The notes below the pieces were generated by a model, which did not search any database, had not been told where the DNA came from, and saw nothing but the letters and a program-made list of their open reading frames with translations. Position numbers and translations under genes: made by a program. Below, piece by piece: positions 3,583-54,164 of a stretch of 64,000 bases of DNA; position 1 is the stretch's first letter; every line of letters begins with the position of its first letter. Source of the DNA: a virus (lineage: Duplodnaviria; Caudoviricetes); the IMG/VR virus record IMGVR_UViG_3300027838_000002, positions 18,980 through 82,979 of that record. One strand, written 5' to 3'.

Positions 3583-6500
3583 CACTCTTCCTCCTCTATG
3601 AACTGCGCCACCTCGGCCGGACTCAGGGTCTGACCCCAGTAACGACATACATCTACATCAGTGGATAGGTAGTACGGACCTGGTTGCCCTTCCTGCCAAA
3701 GCGTGCCATCGATGTCATTCGGATATACCGGGACATCTTCGGTCATGCACTTGGGCAATACGACTTCACACACTTCCTGCATGTGCCGATACGGCACTTC
3801 AAGAAGGACGGCATCATGAATCTGCAACACGATCCGGTAATCAACATCATGGTGCTTGCGATACTCGTAGAGATTGTGCAGCGCAAGACTCATTGCGTCA
3901 GCCACAAGGGACTGAATCGGGAAGTTCTGCGCCTGCCGTTCTGCCTCGCCGACCTTGGAACGGAGATCCGGAGAAATCTCATAGAAGCGCCTGTACCGCC
4001 CAAAGGCATTACGCAACCACCTCTGATCCGTGGCACGCTCGCGGCATTTGGATAAGAATCCTTCGACGCCGGGATATGTCTCAAAGTAATTGTTGATCAG
4101 TAGCTGCGCTTCAGATTCGACGATATCCACGCCCTCTTCACGACACTGCCGCGCGATTGCAGCTGCGCCACGTCCGTATGGTATCCCGAAGTTCACGTTC
4201 TTCGCCGCAACCCGCATACCGGAAACCCCAGCATCCTTGAGTCCGCTCTTGGTTGGCAGGCAGTCCAGGCGAAACGCACGGACTGCTGCCTGGGAATGGA
4301 TGTCATAGTGGTCGTCATGGACCTCAGGAAGCATGTTCCTGCGTACATGTTCGATGCCAGTGGGGTCATCAGCCAACCACATGATCGCAGCCAGTTCGGC
4401 TCCCGTATAATCAGCCTCCACCAGCAAGTGACCAGGACTGGCCGCAAAGATACTCCGGATTGGATACTCGTACCGCTCACCTATGATGCGGCGGTAATCG
4501 TCTTCACGCCGTTTGCTTATGTTCTGAAGATTGGGGCGTGCCGAAGACGCTCGCCCAGTCTCCAAGATCTGCATCAGGTGCGTGTGGATACGCCCGTCGC
4601 TGCTGACGTGGGACAGAAGACCCTGCTTGTAAATCTTGTCCCCATCATCGTCGAGCTCGGGCAAACCTTGCTCGTCCACCACGGAATGTCGCAAGGTGGT
4701 TTTCAATACCTGGTCCAAGAACCGAATGTCCCGGATCTGCGCAGCAATCGGATGCTGCTGGCCCAGGATACCCAAGGTCTCACGGTTGGTTGATGGGGTG
4801 TGCAGGTGCTCCTCGTTCCGGGTACAAATGTCGTCCCAGCTCTGTGGACGTGCGCCCGTGCTAGTGATGGGCTGCAGATTGAGCGTCACAACGCCGTCAG
4901 GGCGCATCAACTGCTGCGTGCCGTCGGGTAACATCTTGAACGCGTGCCGATCTCCGAACAGGACAGCGCGACAATGATGCGATGACGCAGGATTGAACTC
5001 AGCCCACCCAAGCTCTGCCCGCAACGACTCCACTTCACGAGATTTTGCTTCACTGAACAACCTGATCAAGTGCTCTGCCCGTTCCATGTCTACGAGCAGC
5101 CCACTTTGCTCCATCTCAAGGAAAGCCAGCGATGCCTTGTGACTAGTGGCATAAGCATCTCTGCAGTCATTACCGAACTCATCAGAGTTCAGCTCCTCGT
5201 CGAAGACGGAGTACAGGCGCCTGGTGACGTCTGCGTCGTAGTTAGCGTACGGATGCAAAACCTCTGCAGGACACTCACCGTATCCCTCCATGTCCTTGGC
5301 GGTTATCCCATTCTGTTTACAGTAATCAGTCTTCCACTGCTCCAGCTCCGTGTCGTACCGAGGACACCCAGTACGTCGAACAGCCTGCTCTTCCAGTTTG
5401 AACCTGGTTGTCTCGTGTAGTGCGTGGCACATCAACGATGTGTCAAAGCCATCAGCATATTGCTCACGTAGATCCAGCCCCAGCTTGTGTCTGAGCCATG
5501 GGAGATCCGACCTGAAGAAATGACCACCGACCTTCACGCCAGGTCGAGCAAACAAGCGGCTGAGCTGACGTGCCGCGGCATCAATTGACGGCACAAAGGC
5601 TGATTCCCCGCCTGCATGATTCAGCACGACACACACGGCAAACTTTGACCGGTGTGACCACTGAACGGTACGCAAGTAGGAGTTGGGCTCCCACGGGTAA
5701 TCACCATGCCACTCGGCATCGACCGCGATCACGTCACCACTCGGGTCAGCTAACGCTTCATCCACGAGACGAGCTAGCTCGCGCTCCTTGTACACAACGT
5801 GATGCTCGATATCATCTTCGGCGAAACCAATCGGCTGCCCGTGCGCCAGTGAGTAAAATTGCCTGATCGTGCCCAGCAGTTCATCGTACCTTTCAGGAGT
5901 GTGATGCACGGCAGCAGGGTGTACCGCGGTCATGACACGCGCAGTGTGGTGTTCCGGTGTTGCGCCCAGCTCGTGGGTTGGGAACTCATAGTCCATCACC
6001 CGCCCCTTCATGGCCTCGACGCCGTACCCGCGCCCAAGCAGGCACTTACTCGCTTCGCTGCCAAGACACAGGATGTAATCTGGACGTGTCAGTCGCAGCT
6101 CCTGCTGCAGAATGATCTCACAGTTTTTAACCCACGCAGCAGGCAGTGCCCCGCTGCTGGCCCGCGGACTGACATGGCGTACCACGTTAGTCATGTACCA
6201 CTCGGAAGCTTCTGATTCAGGTATTCCTGCTTCACCAACAGCCTTGTAGAGCGGCTCACTGATGGGGCCAACGAAGTTACGCCTGCCCGTGGGCCAGCTG
6301 ATTGCATTAACGCTCGGCTGCTTACCGATAACCATCACCTTCGGGTAGTGCTCTGAGAGCGCCACCGGCCCGCTCGCCTCCTGCCCCCATGGATGCCCCA
6401 CTACAAAATCAACAACGTGCTGCTGACCCTTGTGCGACACCGTCAGCGCGAACTGACTGTCATACAGCGCCCGCCAGTACAGGTATTTCAGGTATTTGCC

Positions 6501-10546: not shown

Positions 10547-12062
10547 CTGCTACCTCCTGCGCCGAAAGCTTAATCTGCACCCATCCCTTCTTGGCATAGT
10601 TGCGATAACGCTTCTGGCTCTTGTTCTTGAGCGTACGATCAAAGTTATCCATGCAGTCGACTACTATGCCTTTCTGCTTACCTGACTCCTCGTGAATACG
10701 CGCCACACGTCCCGGCGCTTGGGTATCAAGGATTTCACTACCCCGGGCGTCCGCCCTAACCAGCACAGCCAACTGCTCAAAACTCACGCCAGTCGACCAC
10801 ACATCCGTAGCAATCACTTTCTTATACAGCTTGTCTTCGAACCCCATTCGAAGCTCTTCTCGTCGATCAGGGGTGACAGGCTCGTAATCCTCTGGAAGCA
10901 TTCCGTTACGTTGGTAGCGCTCGATATCTTCTGCTTCGATGCTGGCGTAGCAAAGCTCATACTCCGGCAGCTCCTGCCAGAGATAGATCGCATGCTCTAT
11001 GGTTTCCACCAATATCAGCACTTGGTCGTCATCAGCGTAGGAGCGTACGGCGGAGGCGATTAACGCATTCCGATTCGCGTTTCTCCATATCCCATGACGC
11101 TTTTTAGGCACTCCCTCCATTCCGGCGCACGGTGATGCACCCTGAACCGGCAGCCAGATGACTTGGATGGGAACGACAAGACCAAGCTCAGTAGCTTCAG
11201 CCCACGACATCTCAAAGATTTTCGGTCCGAACAGGTATTCCAGCTTGGCATCAGATCCGTCTGCACGGCCTTCGGGCGTAGCTGTCAGGCCGTAATTTCT
11301 GCTCAGCGTATACATCTTAGAGATGGCTGCAGAGTGTTTCGGGCTCATCAGCTCATGGACCTCGTCCGCCAGCAGGATGTCACAATCACCGCTGCTGTGG
11401 TGTAACGAGTCCGCCGTGAACACGGTAACACGTGCCTCTTCCCGTTTGCCGCCGCCGACTTGCCCGACGCTGGGAAGAAACCGCCTCAACGCCCGCACGG
11501 TACGCTGAACGACATCCTTCCGCCTGGTCACGATATGAATCTTGGCCTTCGGGAAAAGCAGGCCCACCATCGCCATCAGGTGAGATTTACCGAACGCCGG
11601 TGGGGCGTCGATGATCCCATATTCGTTCTCCACTATAGCTCGCAAGCACTCTTCCTGGCGTGCACGGAACTCGATGTTCCTGCGTACGTTGTCCCAGTCT
11701 TCCTCGAACGCGTTTACGCGAGGGCTTGGGGGCGTGTAGTCGACAAAATCGATGGTGTACCCGGCCGCGCCCAAGATCGACTGAATTTTCTGCAAGTAGC
11801 CGCAGCAGGTAACGATCTTGTTGTCACGGATACGATACAACTTCGTACGCGTTTGCTTCGTCGTATGACGCTGCCCTGTAACCTCGTCACGTTGTGCGTA
11901 TCCGTACAGGAACTGTACGTACGTATACGTCATCGCTGGACGTAGCAGCGAAAAAACGTGCGATTCCTCGACGGCGCTTCCGTCGGAGTACGACACCTCT
12001 AGCATTGTGCCGTACTTGCGAACCAGTACATCTTGTGTCACGGCATTTAAACTCCACCCCAT
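10539..12062 (-). CDS. Superfamily 2 helicase (UvsW-like)
   Basis: RARQ Q-motif, APPAFGKS, DEVH, TAT, STGVS, QAPGRVAR. Confidence 0.88.
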   Translation of the reverse strand: MGWSLNAVTQDVLVRKYGTMLEVSYSDGSAVEESHVFSLLRPAMTYTYVQFLYGYAQRDEVTGQRHTTKQTRTKLYRIRDNKIVTCCGYLQKIQSILGAAGYTIDFVDYTPPSPRVNAFEEDWDNVRRNIEFRARQEECLRAIVENEYGIIDAPPAFGKSHLMAMVGLLFPKAKIHIVTRRKDVVQRTVRALRRFLPSVGQVGGGKREEARVTVFTADSLHHSSGDCDILLADEVHELMSPKHSAAISKMYTLSRNYGLTATPEGRADGSDAKLEYLFGPKIFEMSWAEATELGLVVPIQVIWLPVQGASPCAGMEGVPKKRHGIWRNANRNALIASAVRSYADDDQVLILVETIEHAIYLWQELPEYELCYASIEAEDIERYQRNGMLPEDYEPVTPDRREELRMGFEDKLYKKVIATDVWSTGVSFEQLAVLVRADARGSEILDTQAPGRVARIHEESGKQKGIVVDCMDNFDRTLKNKSQKRYRNYAKKGWVQIKLSAQEVADV

Positions 12063-19831: not shown

Positions 19832-20598
19832 TAAACTGGTGCAACCGCATCAAACACTGCCGCAGAAAGCGTCAGAGAATAGTCCTTATCGTCATACTTG
19901 ATGGTCAACGGTGTGCAGTCGTCGCTACCGTTCTGCCCAACGAAATCCAAATCACGTATCGGAGGATGCTCTGCTACCACGTCCTCGCCGCCTGACAGCA
20001 GGTACGCGTCAACGTAATGATAGTTCTCAGCCGTCGATATCTCGACTACAAAATCAAGCGGCCCATTCTCGTGTGTAAACTCCGCATGCGCAAGACGTAA
20101 CAACGATGACCCAACCGGGGAATCTGGATCAGGTTCTGCCAATAACGCGAGAGCGTTATCCAGATCCGACTGGGTAACGGTCTGCTCGATCGGCTCCAAG
20201 ATCTCCTCGTAGCCAGGATCCTCCGGAGTTTCTACTGGCGCCAATAGAGCAGCAGGAGCCTCGTCGTGTGCATCAAGATCGGCGCCCTCCTCTGATTCGA
20301 ACACCTCGGTCAGATACTCGGTAAGAGACAGCTCCACGTTATCGTCGAGCATATCCGCGTAGTAGCTGAGCAGCGTTACCTTGGTCTCGTCAGCGATCTC
20401 GCGCTGTCCCCAGACATTCTTGGTACGCAGCGCTGCTGAATAAAGGGCGCTACCATTCTCGTCGAAGCTCGCTGATTTCACAAAAGAGTCAAACGGCATA
20501 TTCGGAAACAGCTTCTTGAACACGATGAACAGGCGCAACAGCTCCAGTTGTCTGACAAGTGACAGTTCGGTCGCGGTCAAAATATCAATGGCTGCCAT
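19831..20598 (-). CDS. Hypothetical acidic protein
   Basis: 255-aa ORF with GAGG RBS. Confidence 0.6.
   Translation of the reverse strand: MAAIDILTATELSLVRQLELLRLFIVFKKLFPNMPFDSFVKSASFDENGSALYSAALRTKNVWGQREIADETKVTLLSYYADMLDDNVELSLTEYLTEVFESEEGADLDAHDEAPAALLAPVETPEDPGYEEILEPIEQTVTQSDLDNALALLAEPDPDSPVGSSLLRLAHAEFTHENGPLDFVVEISTAENYHYVDAYLLSGGEDVVAEHPPIRDLDFVGQNGSDDCTPLTIKYDDKDYSLTLSAAVFDAVAPV
20232..20247. repeat. Palindrome copy 2, CTACTGGCGCCAATAG
   Basis: One mismatch to the 1771 copy; intragenic. Confidence 0.6.
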
Positions 20599-22442: not shown

Positions 22443-22479
22443 CACGCTCGCGGCATGGTACTCACGTATACCGTGGTTA
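22443..22479 (-). ncRNA. Solo TIGR-like dual-spacer unit 2
   Basis: Minus strand TAACCA-CGGTATAC-GTGAGTACCA-TGCCGCGA-GCGTG, directly after the Nop-domain gene. Confidence 0.75.
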
Positions 22480-23763
22480 CTCTTCAGAAGCTTCGTCCTC
22501 GGAGTCTTCGTCATCCACTTCCGGTGCCGGTGCCGGTGCCGGACGCGGAGCGTACAAGTCGCTAAGCGGCTTGCCACCCAGGTCGTCCGCAAGCGGGAAG
22601 TGCGGAATAGGGATGGTATGCGTGTGCGTACCATCGCCGTGCTCGATAATAAACGGCTTCGGAGGATCTTCCCCGTTGAGATCCACGTACATCACGTGAT
22701 GTAGATGCGACATGAAGATCTTCACCGCATAACGGCGAGCACGCGCATGAATATGCGCCGGGGCAAGCATTACAACGCCGCTACCAGGTGCGCCCTCGTT
22801 CGTGTTGAGGTACGGCAACCGCTTGGCCTGGTCCAGTGCCAGCACCTTAAGCATGGTGTCTGCGGTGTAACAGCCTTTCATCCACTTGGTAGCATAGGCG
22901 TCATCACTACGCTTCTGCTTCGTCAGGATGCTTACTGCCTGGTCCGAAAACGCACCAGCCATATTACGCTCGACCTCCAGGGCCTTCCGAGCCTGGAACA
23001 AATGGCCGTAATCGCAGTCTTCGTGATTTTGAAACTTCACGAAGCACTCGCCCATCTTGAACGCACAAAGCGACTTAAGCTCAGCGTTCCACGGACGCGC
23101 AGCCAGGTACTTCTCCATAGCAGCATACTTCTTGTACTTGGCAAAGCCATCAGACCAAACCTGCTGCAGCCGGACAGGATTAACGTTACACAGCGACGAC
23201 AACTCCGTAGCCAGCGGTAGCGAAAGGGTGCGCGCGGTCTTTTGCAGGTCGACCTGTTGCAACATGCTCTTCGCTTCCTCTTTGCCGTGCCAAGTGCGGG
23301 ACGGATCCAAGCCAGCGAAGCGCCACCACTTGCCCACGGTGGGAGTATTCCTGATATCCAGGTGCGCCAACAACCCAGCAGTAATCACCGGACCGATACC
23401 GTGATTTGACAAACACCATCGTCCAGCTGCGTACGAGGCAGCAAACTCACCCAGCGCACGCTTGATGTCCTCTTCTGCACGCTTAATATTCGCCAGTCCC
23501 CAACAGATGACCTCGTTAGGCTCAGCGTGCTTCTCAGTCTGCCGCTGCTGGCCCCGAAAACGGATACGCACGTTCTGCATCTGGTAGTACATGTCTACCA
23601 GGAACCGCGCCTCCTCGGATCCAAGTTCCGTAGCGGCTTTCCGCAAATCGCTGTCAAGCCTTTCAAGCAGCTCCCACTGAGACGCATCCACGGTTTGGGC
23701 TTCAGTATTCTCGCTAGCATTATCATCGTGTTCTGGCACATCAGGAAAATAAATTGAGCTCAT
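22477..23763 (-). CDS. IS110-related Nop-domain protein, TasA-like (no RuvC or HNH domain)
   Basis: Coiled coil LVDMYYQMQNVRIR; WCLSNHGIGPVITAGLLAHLD..TVGKWWRFAGLDP; PWNAELK; HIHARARRYAVKIFMSHL; no N-terminal DEDD RuvC domain; adjoins dual-repeat units. Confidence 0.8.
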   Translation of the reverse strand: MSSIYFPDVPEHDDNASENTEAQTVDASQWELLERLDSDLRKAATELGSEEARFLVDMYYQMQNVRIRFRGQQRQTEKHAEPNEVICWGLANIKRAEEDIKRALGEFAASYAAGRWCLSNHGIGPVITAGLLAHLDIRNTPTVGKWWRFAGLDPSRTWHGKEEAKSMLQQVDLQKTARTLSLPLATELSSLCNVNPVRLQQVWSDGFAKYKKYAAMEKYLAARPWNAELKSLCAFKMGECFVKFQNHEDCDYGHLFQARKALEVERNMAGAFSDQAVSILTKQKRSDDAYATKWMKGCYTADTMLKVLALDQAKRLPYLNTNEGAPGSGVVMLAPAHIHARARRYAVKIFMSHLHHVMYVDLNGEDPPKPFIIEHGDGTHTHTIPIPHFPLADDLGGKPLSDLYAPRPAPAPAPEVDDEDSEDEASEE

Positions 23764-27568: not shown

Positions 27569-27958
27569 TTACCGAGTCTGTTTTTCCTCTTCCGACCCGC
27601 TACTGGCGCCAATAGGCTCCATGAACTCCTCTTCTCGTGCGTAACCTCTCAACATCCACTCCGTTGGACGAATCTCTCCGAGCCAGTCCTGCACCGATGG
27701 GATCCGTCCCAGGTCTTCCATGACATGCTGTTCGCCAACAGAACGCACAGGAACCTTCCTGAGGTCCGAATTGACGATCGTGGTACCAAAGCGCTGCTCG
27801 CACTCGAAGATGCCCTGAGAGTGGTGCCTGAGGGCCCTGTGGCGTAGATCTGCCATGTGGGCCTTCGACTCGTCGAACCAGGTATGGATCTCGACGTAAT
27901 CGTCAGCTACGCCGCCAAATTTACGTGCGGAAGACACCGCGTGATAATACGGCTTCAC
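27569..27958 (-). CDS. DUF6915-like protein
   Basis: HAVSSARKFGG..DY..IH.WFDESK..D.RHRALRHHS.GIF. Confidence 0.75.
   Translation of the reverse strand: MKPYYHAVSSARKFGGVADDYVEIHTWFDESKAHMADLRHRALRHHSQGIFECEQRFGTTIVNSDLRKVPVRSVGEQHVMEDLGRIPSVQDWLGEIRPTEWMLRGYAREEEFMEPIGASSGSEEEKQTR
27600..27615. repeat. Palindrome copy 3, CTACTGGCGCCAATAG
   Basis: One mismatch to the 1771 copy; intragenic. Confidence 0.6.
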
Positions 27959-50420: not shown

Positions 50421-50686
50421 ATCCCCGAGACGATCCTGAAATCGTTACGCCAGCCGGTAACACATTCCCCTTCGATGGATTCGAGAGTATTACCCTCGGT
50501 ATCGACGGGGTAGCACCCAGACTGATCCGAAATTCCCGGCTTGGACATACCAAGCGCCGCGGCTTTTTGCAGCGCCATGTGCTTGGCTTCCGTACTTGCG
50601 ACATCATCAATGGAGTCTCCACTGACGATAATCGTACTTTCCTGTCCTGCAAAAACGCACGCGTCGTCAATAATCTTCACGGTCAT
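50417..50686 (-). CDS. Hypothetical protein
   Basis: Colinear, translationally coupled. Confidence 0.6.
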   Translation of the reverse strand: MTVKIIDDACVFAGQESTIIVSGDSIDDVASTEAKHMALQKAAALGMSKPGISDQSGCYPVDTEGNTLESIEGECVTGWRNDFRIVSGI

Positions 50687-51105
50687 TACTCGTTTTCCTC
50701 GTTTCCCTTGGAATCATACTCTGAGACGTTAGCCTTCTTACTGGCATATTGTGCGGCAACGTAGTCGCGCACATGTGGTAACACCTGGTGGAACTTTTCG
50801 ACAATATCCACAAGTTGGATTTCTTCGAAAATACGGGCGATCTCTTTCTGAATGCGCTTTAGCTGCATATTAGTGTACTTCCCACGCTGCGCAATATCCA
50901 ATGCCCGCGCGAGCTTTTTGTCTTCTGCGCACACGCGTTCAAACGCCTCCGCGTCCATCCAGGCCATCGCACCGTGGCGATAGCTGGTGGCAAACAGGTT
51001 GTGCATCGGTGACTTCACCATGTTACGCAGGCGATACCCGCAGTGTAAAATGTGGTCGTTTGGTTCTTGTAATTCATACAACAGTTTTGGCTTACGTTTC
51101 GCCAC
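50686..51105 (-). CDS. Hypothetical protein
   Basis: GGAG RBS. Confidence 0.6.
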   Translation of the reverse strand: MAKRKPKLLYELQEPNDHILHCGYRLRNMVKSPMHNLFATSYRHGAMAWMDAEAFERVCAEDKKLARALDIAQRGKYTNMQLKRIQKEIARIFEEIQLVDIVEKFHQVLPHVRDYVAAQYASKKANVSEYDSKGNEENE

Positions 51106-51352
51106 GCATTTCTCCGTACAATTTCCTGATAGCTAAAAGATATTGTGGGATGCGCCACACTCAAACAGATCACTCTGCCAGAGTGTGGCGCACCGTACCG
51201 ATGTAATAACGGGTGGATGGGATTTACTTGTTCCCACAAGTCGTTATCGACTGCCGCCGTCTACCTGAACTCCTCAACCATTTGGCCATCGGAACTCAGT
51301 AGTGCGCGCACCTTAGTTCAGTCACCACCCTAGCCGGGGTCGCGTACCCCGG

Positions 51353-51368
51353 CTATTGGCGCCAATAG
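51353..51368. repeat. Palindrome copy 4, CTATTGGCGCCAATAG
   Basis: Identical to the 1771 copy; intergenic. Confidence 0.8.
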
Positions 51369-51400
51369 GCGCCCGTTGTGTTGTTGCAAAGCTGTGCTGG

Positions 51401-51440
51401 AAAAGAACCCACCCGAGGCGCGTAAGCGCCCCGGGTGGGG
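51401..51440 (-). terminator. Rho-independent terminator closing the ncRNA region
   Basis: CCCACCCGGGGCGC-loop-GCGCCTCGGGTGGG followed by TTCTTTT. Confidence 0.7.
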
Positions 51441-52000
51441 TGGACAGTGACCGCTTGTCGAGCGTCAGGGTGCTTCCCCCTGATATTACTTGGAGTAGTT
51501 TTAAGCCGTTCCAATCTCGGCTATGACTTTTCGGGCATCGGGCTGTCGCCTAGCGACACTCTCAACAGGGTTGCATTCAAGCGACCCTATCGACACCTTC
51601 TGCACTATTCTCTTGGTCTAGTGTCATCAACTAGACCTTGAACGACCACCTTGCCAGGATGGTCGTTGAATTTTGTTTCCGTGGTGACATAAGGCTTGAG
51701 CCTTGCGCGCACCAGGATTTTGAGACGGACATAGTGGACAATCCGCCTGCGAGGACCAGCGATGCTTACATAAAGAGAAGCAGCGATCCTCGACTTGAGC
51801 CAGAGAGTTCCGGCCCGAGCCTTTTAACGTCCTGCTCAGGACGACCGCAAAGGGGGCGGATCAGGAATTGAACCCGGATCTTCCGATCACCTACGTAGCG
51901 GTGCACACCGTGGATTTTTAACCGGAGACAAGTAGTCCGCGGAACCCGAGGTTTACTCGTGCACGTAGCGTAAAGTCGGTAACCCAACCATGGGCGCCCC
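51401..52000 (-). ncRNA. Candidate large structured ncRNA(s) with a 5' tRNA/tmRNA-like domain
   Basis: No credible ORF; many hairpins; GGGGCG/CGCCCC closing stem and T-loop GGTTCAATTCC; upstream promoter motif and downstream terminator. Confidence 0.55.
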
Positions 52001-52019
52001 TTGAGGAACCCTAGGGATC

Positions 52020-52056
52020 CTCAAGGTATTATGACCGGTTTCCCTCCGTTATTTAG
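52020..52056 (-). promoter_or_regulatory. Repeated promoter-like motif, copy 1
   Basis: CTAAA-18 bp-CATAAT with shared AAACC(A/G)GTCATAATACCTTGAGG. Confidence 0.55.
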
Positions 52057-52178
52057 GTCAACCGGATAGTGTCTTTCGCGCTAGTTACGCGGGTCATTGC
52101 TGTACATGGCTCCGTCAGCGGGGCGTACAAAGAATCCCCACCCGAGCCACGCCAGCACCACAACGGTTAGCCAACCCA

Positions 52179-52532
52179 TTAAAAGTCGATCTCGCCGTCA
52201 TAGTCGTGGGCAGGTTCTACTTCTTCGTCGAAGTCGTGCACCCAGAACGGCGAGGTACCCTCCGGGTCATTCCGGTACTGATTCCGTTGTTCGGCAGCAG
52301 CCTCGGCAACACTGTCCTTAAGATCAATGCGCAGTACCACCCCGGTGGGCAGATGCATCAGCTTAAGCCAGCTGTTGTGACGGTGGTGAGTATGTTCCAC
52401 AATCCAATCAGGGTCGGTGCCGATGCGGGATGCCATCGAGGAAAAACCGAATAACTCCGAGACGATCGGCGCACCGTCAGCGTCTCGGGGGATCTCGATG
52501 GTATCTTCAACGCTCACCTGCAAATCACTCAT
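52179..52532 (-). CDS. Hypothetical protein
   Basis: Acidic ORF with RBS. Confidence 0.6.
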   Translation of the reverse strand: MSDLQVSVEDTIEIPRDADGAPIVSELFGFSSMASRIGTDPDWIVEHTHHRHNSWLKLMHLPTGVVLRIDLKDSVAEAAAEQRNQYRNDPEGTSPFWVHDFDEEVEPAHDYDGEIDF

Positions 52533-52701
52533 CCTCGTGCTCCTTTTTCTTATGTCGTGGTCCGTCCGTATCCAACATCACCGCCCCCAGCAACAACATC
52601 CCGGACCCTACGAGAAGCGGGGTCTGGTTGCTGTATGTCGCTCCCAGCATTACGAATCCGCTGGTCGACAGTAGTACCCATCCGCACAGCAGTTTGGCCA
52701 T
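52525..52701 (-). CDS. 58-aa two-TM membrane protein (absent from track)
   Basis: MAKLLCGWVLLSTSGFVMLGA...; AAGGAG RBS. Confidence 0.5.
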   Translation of the reverse strand: MAKLLCGWVLLSTSGFVMLGATYSNQTPLLVGSGMLLLGAVMLDTDGPRHKKKEHEDE

Positions 52702-52800: not shown

Positions 52801-52862
52801 TAGTCTTCTCCTATAGATAAGAAGACAGCCCGCGCGGCAGGTGGCTACGCGAGCTATGAAGC

Positions 52863-52899
52863 CTCAAGGTATTATGACTGGTTTTTGGCGGCTGTTTAG
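52863..52899 (-). promoter_or_regulatory. Repeated promoter-like motif, copy 2
   Basis: Same CTAAA-18 bp-CATAATACCTTGAGG layout as at 52020. Confidence 0.55.
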
Positions 52900-53693: not shown

Positions 53694-54164
53694 CTAATCT
53701 CCCTTATGTCGGAACCGCTCGTCCGGCGGCGTCGTCAGCGCTTTTCTTGCCGACCAGAACCGTTGTAGTCTACTACGTATTGTCGCCTGGTTGATCCCGG
53801 TTTTCTTGGCCCAGTAAGCAACTGTACCTACCTCATCATCAAGTGTCAGGTGTAGGGCGCTTCTTTGACTGTGTTCACGTGGGCGCAGCATAAGCACATC
53901 ACAGATGGGCCATTTGTAGGTGGATAGTCTGCTACGTATCGTGGCGGCGTTAATCCCAAGTTCTTCCGCCCACGCGTCTATGCTTTTGCATTTCCCGTTG
54001 AACGTCAACATGCGTCGGCGGTTTTTTCCGTTGGGCTGTATTGTCAGGGCCTGGTGTATCGTCCACCCATAGTGATACACACGGCTCTGCAGGGTGCCGA
54101 GACTTATCCCGACCTCCTCAGACCATGCGCGCAGACTTTGGGTTTTACCTTTGTGTGAGAACAC
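53694..54164 (-). CDS. Protein of three tandem HTH-like repeats of the type appended to phage HNH endonucleases
   Basis: Three copies of G...S...W....GI...T..SR....W....AL. Confidence 0.65.
   Translation of the reverse strand: MFSHKGKTQSLRAWSEEVGISLGTLQSRVYHYGWTIHQALTIQPNGKNRRRMLTFNGKCKSIDAWAEELGINAATIRSRLSTYKWPICDVLMLRPREHSQRSALHLTLDDEVGTVAYWAKKTGINQATIRSRLQRFWSARKALTTPPDERFRHKGD

Follow-up and report, generated by a model that had tools for sequence, protein, structure and literature searches.

The locus examined here lies in a 64,000-nt stretch of marine phage DNA (the window), which corresponds to bases 18980–82979 of an 82,979-bp IMG/VR record whose completeness is rated at ~40%. The record encodes a DNA polymerase, a DnaB-like helicase, an SbcC-like nuclease, and a large terminase, and the minus strand carries almost all of its genes. 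Relatives of the terminase (50–68% identity) are found on contigs that reach 205 kb, including two with terminal repeats, and the source record is thus a fragment of a ~200-kb marine phage. Using the presence of at least half of the sampled words as the criterion, near-identical DNA was detected in at least 13 seawater or marine DNA runs under 13 study codes. The largest gene-free gap of the 83-kb record, at window positions 51106–52178, holds the non-coding RNA (ncRNA) region that is the subject of this analysis. It is bordered on the upstream side by a 117-aa ORF (52179–52532) and on the downstream side by a 139-aa ORF (50686–51105), neither of which matches a known family. For the ten proteins encoded around the locus, searches of Pfam and PHROGs returned matches only for an AAA ATPase and an HTH-repeat protein, and none of the matches was RNA-related.

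The boundaries of the segment 52026–51400 on the minus strand look like those of a transcription unit. A promoter-like motif of ~45 nt (52019–52057, minus strand) contains the core AACCGGTCATAATACCTTGAGG at 52040–52019 and a −10-like CATAAT at 52033–52028. This sequence repeat occurs three times in the 83-kb record (window 52019–52040, window 52862–52883, and genome 7269–7290), each time on the minus strand and in an intergenic position, and in distant relatives GTCATAAT stands at a fixed distance of ~35 nt past their terminators. A generic sigma-70 scan did not call the motif at 52019–52057, and a search of IMG/VR for the core as an exact pattern returned no match. The likely 5′ end of the transcript is a predicted leader hairpin (TTGAGGA...TCCTCAA; 52001–52024, minus strand), the apex of which is altered at positions 52008, 52014, and 52017 in a variant from sequencing run X13 while the 7-bp stem is kept. 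A likeness of the leader sequence 'RIPRV' to bacterial peptides is undone by the same variant, which changes three codons and retains the hairpin. At the opposite end, as the initial annotation had described, the region closes with an intrinsic terminator (51399–51439, minus strand), composed of a 14-bp G+C-rich stem (51439–51408; 12 of the 14 pairs are G-C), a TTAC loop, and a TTCTTTT tail. The sole variant seen in this element, at 51424, falls in the loop. From these boundaries, we infer that the promoter at 52019–52057 directs transcription of the region as one ~620-nt RNA.

Between the terminator and gene 50686–51105 is a manA-like element (51354–51207), located outside the ncRNA region and detected as a sub-threshold match to the Rfam family manA (RF01745; 30.8 bits, gathering score 55.2, E 8.8e-6). 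The manA RNAs are described as 5′-UTR elements in marine phages and bacteria (PMC2864571). The element resembles these RNAs in its marine phage setting and in the alignment of conserved core letters and pseudoknot arms (PMC2864571), but one stem of the model is absent and the score lies below the gathering score. The ncRNA region might accordingly be read as a long regulatory leader of gene 50686–51105, in which the hairpins and terminator would act as an attenuator together with the manA-like element, and a promoter scan between the terminator and that element indeed found no separate promoter. We regard this as unlikely, given a very strong terminator with no visible competing anti-terminator and a length of 620 nt that far exceeds known leaders. 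The motif TTTTAGCTATCAG, which follows terminators in relatives, is also situated immediately ahead of gene 50686–51105 and suggests that the gene belongs to a separate unit.

The minus strand of 51395–52030 is predicted to fold with a minimum free energy of −268.8 kcal/mol, corresponding to a z score of −7.7 against dinucleotide shuffles. In a repeat folding test, the z score was −7.5, whereas 18 control windows, matched in length and drawn from the source genome, spanned +1.2 to −4.7; it is the strongest among the 19 windows tested. The region is a bounded, gene-free, and exceptionally structured unit, and the ~600-nt structured region proposed in the initial annotation is therefore real, as judged from the gene-free gap, the folding score, and the promoter motif and terminator at its ends. 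The chain of further hairpins that had been noted in its 3′ part is likewise present, as a predicted array of approximately nine hairpins (51440–51814, minus strand) without a detectable homologue.

The plus strand of the region folds almost as well as the minus strand (z −7.5), and many of the stems are perfect palindromes. That both strands fold nearly equally well implies that most stems are plain palindromes, which would form in single-stranded DNA too. A DNA-level element could thus have given rise to the hairpins as by-products of inverted repeats; examples would be an origin of replication, a site for packaging or recombination, or palindromes bound by proteins. A further palindrome, CCTATTGGCGCCAATAGG, is located at 51353–51370, just beyond the terminator, and has three other copies in the genome, and the altered leader apex of the X13 variant resembles an inverted copy. 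Nonetheless, we judge a DNA element to be rather improbable: the promoter motif and the terminator take the orientation expected of a single unit, no GC-skew switch is found at the ncRNA region, contigs from RNA libraries map to it, and the G·U pairs and a one-sided G·U to G-C change described below are strand-specific.

Positions 50600–52700 were compared with contigs from two DNA and two metatranscriptome runs, and the natural variants recovered in this way keep the predicted structure of the region. In the hairpin at 51717–51678, a compensatory change from U-A to G-C joins 51714 with 51682, and the 14-nt tip of this hairpin (51693–51706) is deleted in the same variants. The variant 51926 A>G (plus strand) converts a G·U to a G-C pair in the inner hairpin of the 5′ domain. 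Divergence of the RNA region in run X13 amounts to 3 of 385 and 2 of 265 sites, in comparison with 16 of 333 in the downstream neighbour gene; because the gene on the upstream side (52198–52700) differs at 0 of 503 nt, the low divergence of the RNA region may partly reflect mosaic recombination. Both metatranscriptome runs (2/2) contained contigs of 151–199 nt within 51451–51834. These contigs, at 51451–51648, 51539–51689, and 51707–51834, lie on the hairpin array and the pseudoknot module described below, are of read length with a depth of 2–3.7, and are confined to this interval, with none over 51852–52000; one of the two libraries also yielded a contig on the neighbouring gene. They provide weak evidence of expression, as carry-over of DNA is possible. 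The suggestion that the region encodes a large phage ncRNA is supported by the combination of the gap, the promoter motif and terminator, the fold, the variants, and the metatranscriptome contigs.

The 149-nt 5′ domain (51852–52000, minus strand) had been proposed to be a tRNA/tmRNA-like head. The letters underlying that proposal are all present on the minus strand, including GGGGCG at 52000, CGCCCC at 51857–51852, the GGG-TTCAATT-CCT hairpin, and the long CCGA...TCGG helix. In the predicted fold, the domain consists of a 6-bp closing stem, a 4-bp small hairpin, a long arm of ~95 nt, and the hairpin with the TTCAATT loop. The likeness to tRNA and tmRNA thus resides in a closing stem rich in G+C, a TTCAATT loop with a G-C closing pair, and a long helix at the position of the anticodon arm. 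The differences are more extensive. Read from the sequence, the putative acceptor has 6 pairs where a tRNA has 7, and the putative T stem can be drawn with 4 pairs and a C-A mismatch or with 7 pairs and a bulged C, which gives a stack of 6 + 7 pairs with a bulge in place of the 7 + 5 of tRNA. A branched arm of ~95 nt replaces the anticodon arm with its 7-nt loop, position 3–70 is G-C rather than the G3·U70 of alanine identity, CCA is not encoded, and the domain spans only ~150 nt. When folded alone (151 nt), it reaches a z score of only −2.6, and its acceptor pairing is lost when the whole region is folded together.

Dedicated detectors gave a consistent result. ARAGORN, run with default settings and with introns allowed, reported 0 tRNA or tmRNA genes in the window or in the 83-kb record and called no tmRNA tag reading frame. 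At a relaxed threshold (95%), the sole call it made at the locus was a 'tRNA-Ser' at 51327–52184 that is implausible, with a 771-nt intron spanning the entire gap. The 4227 models of Rfam 15 produced 0 matches at gathering score in the 64 kb; at E ≤ 10, a 1.4-kb segment (51000–52400) returned only the sub-threshold manA match and noise, and the 251 nt around the 5′ domain returned no tRNA, tmRNA, or tRNA-Sec but two noise hits. By way of comparison, the RF00005 model detects 1–9 tRNAs in 25 of 32 relatives. A single-sequence covariance model of the 5′ domain (R2) recovered its own locus at 188.9 bits, as a positive control, and found no match at E ≤ 1 in any of 36 other phage records. A scan for an acceptor plus T arm across 1.7 Mb of loci gave 15 hits versus 14 in reversed controls and missed the 5′ domain itself; it was discarded as having no discriminating power. 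A 73-aa ORF that begins with TTG and runs across the domain was rejected, as it has no ribosome-binding site. The 5′ domain is therefore tRNA-like only superficially; it is neither a tRNA nor a tmRNA, and no relationship to either is detectable, although it is possibly a very degenerate descendant of an enlarged tRNA gene.

These data bear on the idea that the domain functions as a tRNA mimic or mini-tmRNA; RNase P would then cleave it, CCA would be added, and it might be charged or serve as a decoy for tRNA-directed enzymes. Odd, enlarged tRNAs do occur among relatives of the source phage: G004 has a 123-nt tRNA-like element with G3·U70 and A73 (RF00005, 32.3 bits), and G026 has a 101-nt tRNA-Ile(UAU) with an extra arm of two hairpins. 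In Nostoc phage NMeng1, an annotated tRNA pseudogene follows 11 nt past a copy of the pseudoknot module. The small hairpin of the domain contains GG, which adds to the closing stem and loop noted above. Set against the silence of ARAGORN and Rfam, the bulged 6 + 7 stack with G3-C70, the missing CCA and tag frame, the poor folding score of the isolated domain, and the lack of a homologue in the 36 records, these points leave a functional mimic quite doubtful. The initial annotation had also allowed for a mini or permuted tmRNA and had named Infernal/Rfam and ARAGORN as checks; neither matches the domain to a standard family, and an attractive but unsupported claim of a new tRNA/tmRNA mimic is thereby removed. 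Covariation with homologues, another check it had named, supports the downstream module but finds nothing to compare for the 5′ domain.

Comparison with other phages indicates that the locus is variable. No match to the 801-nt region was found by blastn in 50,697 GenBank phage records, and single queries of IMG/VR with the 139-aa and 117-aa flanking proteins and the AAA ATPase returned no relatives. When 901 nt were compared with 32 related records by blastn, only the 27-nt module at 51843–51817 fell below E 0.01. In relative G004, whose ATPase is 43% identical, gene order is conserved on both sides and the interval is filled by other small ORFs; in two metagenome contigs (L131 and L132), the flanking genes are kept, small ORFs again occupy the interval, and the locus is absent. 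A closer contig (L133, 73% identity) ends before the position of the locus. Because these syntenic relatives do not carry the locus, the RNA unit and its two orphan flanking genes constitute a variable accessory stretch, and the unit is lineage-specific. Two further candidates were dismissed at this locus: a type III toxin–antitoxin RNA or tandem array, as the ncRNA region contains no tandem repeats, and a flanking 23-nt direct repeat (78% identity), which was judged to be a chance match.

A variable region that is absent from relatives could also be evolutionary debris without an overall function, made up of decayed small genes or a tRNA cluster with leftover terminators, in which the module would be the tail of a lost gene. 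The module does follow ORFs elsewhere (see below), and tRNA content differs in the direction that such decay would predict, with 8–9 tRNAs in 7 of the 9 relatives rated at least 90% complete (the others include records with 4 and 0) and none called by ARAGORN in the 83-kb source fragment. Decay is, however, difficult to reconcile with the strongest folding score among the 19 windows, with variants that keep the structure, with a divergence in X13 below that of the neighbouring gene, and with an intact promoter motif and terminator. We consider it improbable that the unit is a relic.

The pseudoknot module, CGTCCTGAGCAGGACGTTAAAAGGCTCGG (51815–51843, minus strand), lies directly between the 5′ domain and the hairpin array. 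It contains a 5-bp hairpin (S1, GTCCT/AGGAC) with a GAGC loop that can pair with a GCTC located eight bases downstream (S2). The two helices correspond either to an H-type pseudoknot or to a pair of competing helices. In an alignment of 31 copies, 98.9% of 279 cells pair in S1 and S2, compared with 37–51% when partners are slid out of register. Four cells carry changes on both sides, a number reached by 0 of 500 shuffles. These include a change from UA to AU at S1 pair 6–17 and, at S2 pair 10–30, changes from GC to AU (twice) and to UA (once). On the given strand, G·U pairs number 3 and 4 in S2 and 2 in S1, which on the other strand would be A-C mismatches. The copies were gathered by similarity to the S1 sequence, which limits the variation that can be seen. 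A profile of the alignment (R1; CGTCCTGAGCAGGACGTTAAA..GCTC) finds the module in its own genome at 42.9 bits (E 4e-11) as the one copy in the fragment, a score that is partly achieved by construction, as that copy is a row of the alignment behind R1. Within these bounds, the alignment shows the module to be conserved, with covariation in both of its predicted helices. What had been annotated as a potential H-type pseudoknot (CGTCCT-GAGC-AGGACG..GCTC, 51843–51817) is thus a widely conserved element with two covarying helices. Because the module is the only part of the unit with homologues, the predicted fold of the other ~590 nt is backed by thermodynamics and a few variants from natural populations.

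The exact 19-mer GTCCTGAGCAGGACGTTAA is present in 8 stretches of IMG/VR and 19 contigs of GTDB. One of the IMG/VR stretches, contig L143, is identical to the module at 29 of 29 nt and has no protein similarity to the source phage. The GTDB carriers are mostly Thermodesulfobacteriota MAGs, with others assigned to Omnitrophica, Saccharibacteria, Cytophagia, and Geobacter and one MAG labelled Aquaspirillum; the contig in the last case is, judging from its terminator and promoter motifs, from a phage of the source phage's family. Looser matches are found in the cultured Vibrio phages 1.238.A and 1.245.O, Streptococcus phage MissE2, Microcystis phage Mwe-JY13, Nostoc phage NMeng1, and three plasmids, and R1 detects nine copies in a single 1.1-Mb Saccharibacteria genome. 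The closer relatives G001–G022 have no strong R1 copy, with G016 and G018 reaching 17.7 bits only. At the loci of other module copies, Rfam identifies only ordinary tRNAs and leaves the module uncovered, and a literature search for the module letters at any position gave no match. On its letters and predicted pairing, the module is a new and widespread RNA motif that is uncatalogued in Rfam 15.

The setting of these copies offers clues to what the module does. In the copies that were read, the module usually starts 5–13 nt past the stop codon of an ORF on the same strand, and in all of them its orientation is that of the upstream gene, a further point against the DNA-level reading of the locus. 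The upstream ORFs in the Saccharibacteria genome and L143 belong to the mobile-element families DUF3768 (three times), DUF7249, and DUF932. A run of 5–8 T follows S2 directly in 9 of the 31 aligned copies, such that the module itself would be the terminator there. The module thus resembles intrinsic terminators in its location at the 3′ ends of genes and in this T-run, but differs from a plain terminator in a sequence conserved across phyla and in possessing a second, overlapping helix (S1). A U-run is absent from the bacterial small-ORF copies discussed below and from most Saccharibacteria copies. The copy in the source phage likewise lacks a U-run and, in contrast to most others, has no ORF ending ahead of it, the nearest upstream in-frame stretch being 9–14 codons without a credible start; consequently, the usual role may not apply there. 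In relatives G023 and G025, the module is similarly found inside non-coding loci of ~500 nt.

A small pseudoknot in phage RNA also invites comparison with self-cleaving ribozymes. HDV-like ribozymes adopt a nested double pseudoknot with P1 at the cleavage site and a 2-bp P1.1. Set against this general topology, the module differs from HDV-like (theta) ribozymes in having no P1 or P2 partners and a pairing of 4–7 bp between the loop and downstream sequence. Theta ribozymes are reported next to phage tRNAs (PMC10879173); at the source locus, the searches at E ≤ 10 gave no HDV-family Rfam match.

A subset of bacterial copies has a different relation to the reading frame. In 15 of the 19 GTDB contigs, the TGA of the module is in frame near the end of a Cys-rich ORF of 24–38 aa that is preceded by a strong ribosome-binding site; the pattern is ...HCSEGC...S-TGA-A-G-R-TAA, with three more codons between the TGA and the TAA. 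Three of these ORFs lie upstream of hldE, and a search of the small Cys-rich peptides against NCBIfam assigned no family. Where the frame was read in phage copies, the TGA is mostly out of frame with the upstream ORF or past its stop. An in-frame TGA spanned by a conserved RNA structure is reminiscent of bSECIS elements, whose consensus places a small apical loop 16–37 nt past the UGA (PMC13188914). Unlike that consensus, the structure in the bacterial module copies begins before the UGA and the spacing does not fit. The copy in the source phage has no ORF to which a SECIS function could apply.

These bacterial copies admit a more speculative reading, in which the module would be a new and very widespread class of RNA element acting at translation termination. 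In Thermodesulfobacteriota, where it encloses a UGA that stands in frame four codons ahead of the C terminus of a 24-aa Cys-rich peptide, it could bring about selenocysteine insertion, or a regulated termination that signals the status of selenium or a release factor. Copies of the module at the ends of early or accessory genes would have been acquired by phages and mobile elements from many phyla, and the 620-nt RNA, which has no ORF, would be a decoy or sponge for the factor that recognises the module (SelB, a release factor, or a nuclease). We hold this to be a long shot.

Our preferred explanation, to which we assign a probability of about 0.5, is that 52026–51400 on the minus strand is an orphan ncRNA transcription unit and that the portable module acts as a transcript-end element that divides the RNA. 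A phage promoter would give rise to an RNA of ~620 nt that begins with the 5′ hairpin, folds into roughly a dozen hairpins, and ends at the intrinsic terminator. On this RNA, the module would serve as a transcript-end or 'punctuation' element, as suggested by its location in other genomes, nearly always 5–13 nt past a stop codon and shortly before a terminator. Such an element could block 3′ exonucleases, mark a site for endonuclease cutting, or tune termination, and a role at transcript ends or in processing is our best guess. In the source phage, processing at the module would split the primary transcript into a ~190-nt 5′ RNA, made up of the leader, the 5′ domain, and the module, and a 3′ RNA that carries the hairpin array.

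Large ncRNAs such as GOLLD and ROOL are known from phages and prophages, some of them beside tRNAs. The 620-nt unit is like these RNAs, as generally described, in extending over hundreds of nucleotides with many hairpins and in being phage-borne and non-coding. It differs in having no Rfam match at the thresholds tried and in that a conserved multi-helix core is not supported by homologues, and it may consist of separate local hairpins in a row rather than a single global fold. Should the transcription unit be real, this orphan would join the short list of large structured phage ncRNAs, and its carrier is a widespread marine giant phage, as the seawater DNA runs attest.

The more useful result is the small pseudoknot, of which 19–29 letters are kept across Vibrio, Streptococcus, and cyanobacterial phages and marine giant phages, and the same letters recur in Thermodesulfobacteriota and in the Saccharibacteria genome with its nine copies. 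As the module is short, conserved, and consistently located just past stop codons, a conserved cellular machine probably recognises it. Identifying that reader could yield a compact 3′-end part for engineering and would explain a recurring feature of the transcripts of phages and mobile elements.

Beside the candidate ncRNA unit, a covariance-model search placed a manA-like RNA element (RF01745) on the minus strand at window 51207-51354, scoring 30.8 bits (E 8.8e-6 in a search space of 1.4 kb) where the family's gathering score is 55.2. The match is sub-threshold; the pseudoknot arms and the conserved core letters of the element can be aligned to the family. The 139-aa ORF lies downstream of it, and its setting agrees with the marine phage habitat given for manA in the published description (PMC2864571).

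Between the manA-like element and the ncRNA terminator is a copy of the palindrome CCTATTGGCGCCAATAGG (window 51353-51370), which occurs at four sites in the genome (the others at 1771-1787, 27599-27617 and 20236-20247) and could be a protein-binding site. A second recurrent element, TTTTAGCTATCAG, is located at window 51126-51138 and at genome positions 4825-4837 and 11698-11710, and is shared with distant relatives (loci L114-L116). In these relatives nearly every terminator is followed by a T-run and AGCTATCA, with a GTCATAAT promoter ∼35 nt beyond. The arrangement appears to constitute a terminator-promoter cassette used across the family.

Two relatives, G025 and G023, carry non-coding loci of ∼500 nt (L115 16232-16760 and L116 15340-15810, respectively, both on the plus strand; folding z -6.7) that are homologous to each other and are each bounded by a promoter at one end and a terminator at the other. 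Each contains two to three copies of the conserved 29-nt pseudoknot module, as well as repeated sub-domains predicted to resemble interleaved pseudoknots; an Rfam search of the two loci returned no match. The module is also found in Nostoc phage NMeng1 (L179 1501-1608), 11 nt 5′ of a gene annotated as tRNA-Pseudo-GAC, a second case in which it adjoins a tRNA-like element.

Enlarged tRNA-like genes are present in other relatives. The closest long relative, G004, encodes a 123-nt gene (L126 1754-1879, minus strand; G004:C1:74256-74378) with normal acceptor, D and T arms, alanine-type identity elements (G3.U70 and A73) and an anticodon loop enlarged by an insert of ∼61 nt. The gene matches RF00005 at 32.3 bits, compared with 12.9 bits for tmRNA, and a small HTH-like ORF terminates at a stop codon that overlaps its 5′ end. 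In G026, one member of a six-tRNA cluster is a 101-nt tRNA-Ile(UAU) (L127 1459-1559, minus strand; G026:C1:115458-115558; 53.9 bits) whose folded variable region bears two extra hairpins.

In GTDB contigs, tiny ORFs with strong ribosome-binding sites end inside the module, in the form S-TGA-A-G-R-TAA (L150, L152, L154, L156, L157, L161 and nine further loci). The encoded peptides fall into two types that share an H-C-x-x-x-C type motif, and an NCBIfam search with them gave no family match; hldE lies downstream of three of the ORFs. Unannotated selenopeptides or leader peptides are possible identities.

Elsewhere in the window, the minus strand encodes a 428-aa ORF (22477-23763) matching phrog_4285, annotated as a transposase (E 4e-28), and a 156-aa protein (53694-54164) made up of three HTH repeats and lacking a nuclease domain; among its PHROG matches is the DNA-binding portion of HNH homing endonucleases.

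The T-run/AGCT plus GTCATAAT cassette of the phage family recurs, together with two tRNAs, on L159, a contig from an Aquaspirillum-labelled MAG. This contig is probably a phage of the family that was binned with a bacterium, a placement that may be a binning artefact or may provide a hint of the host.
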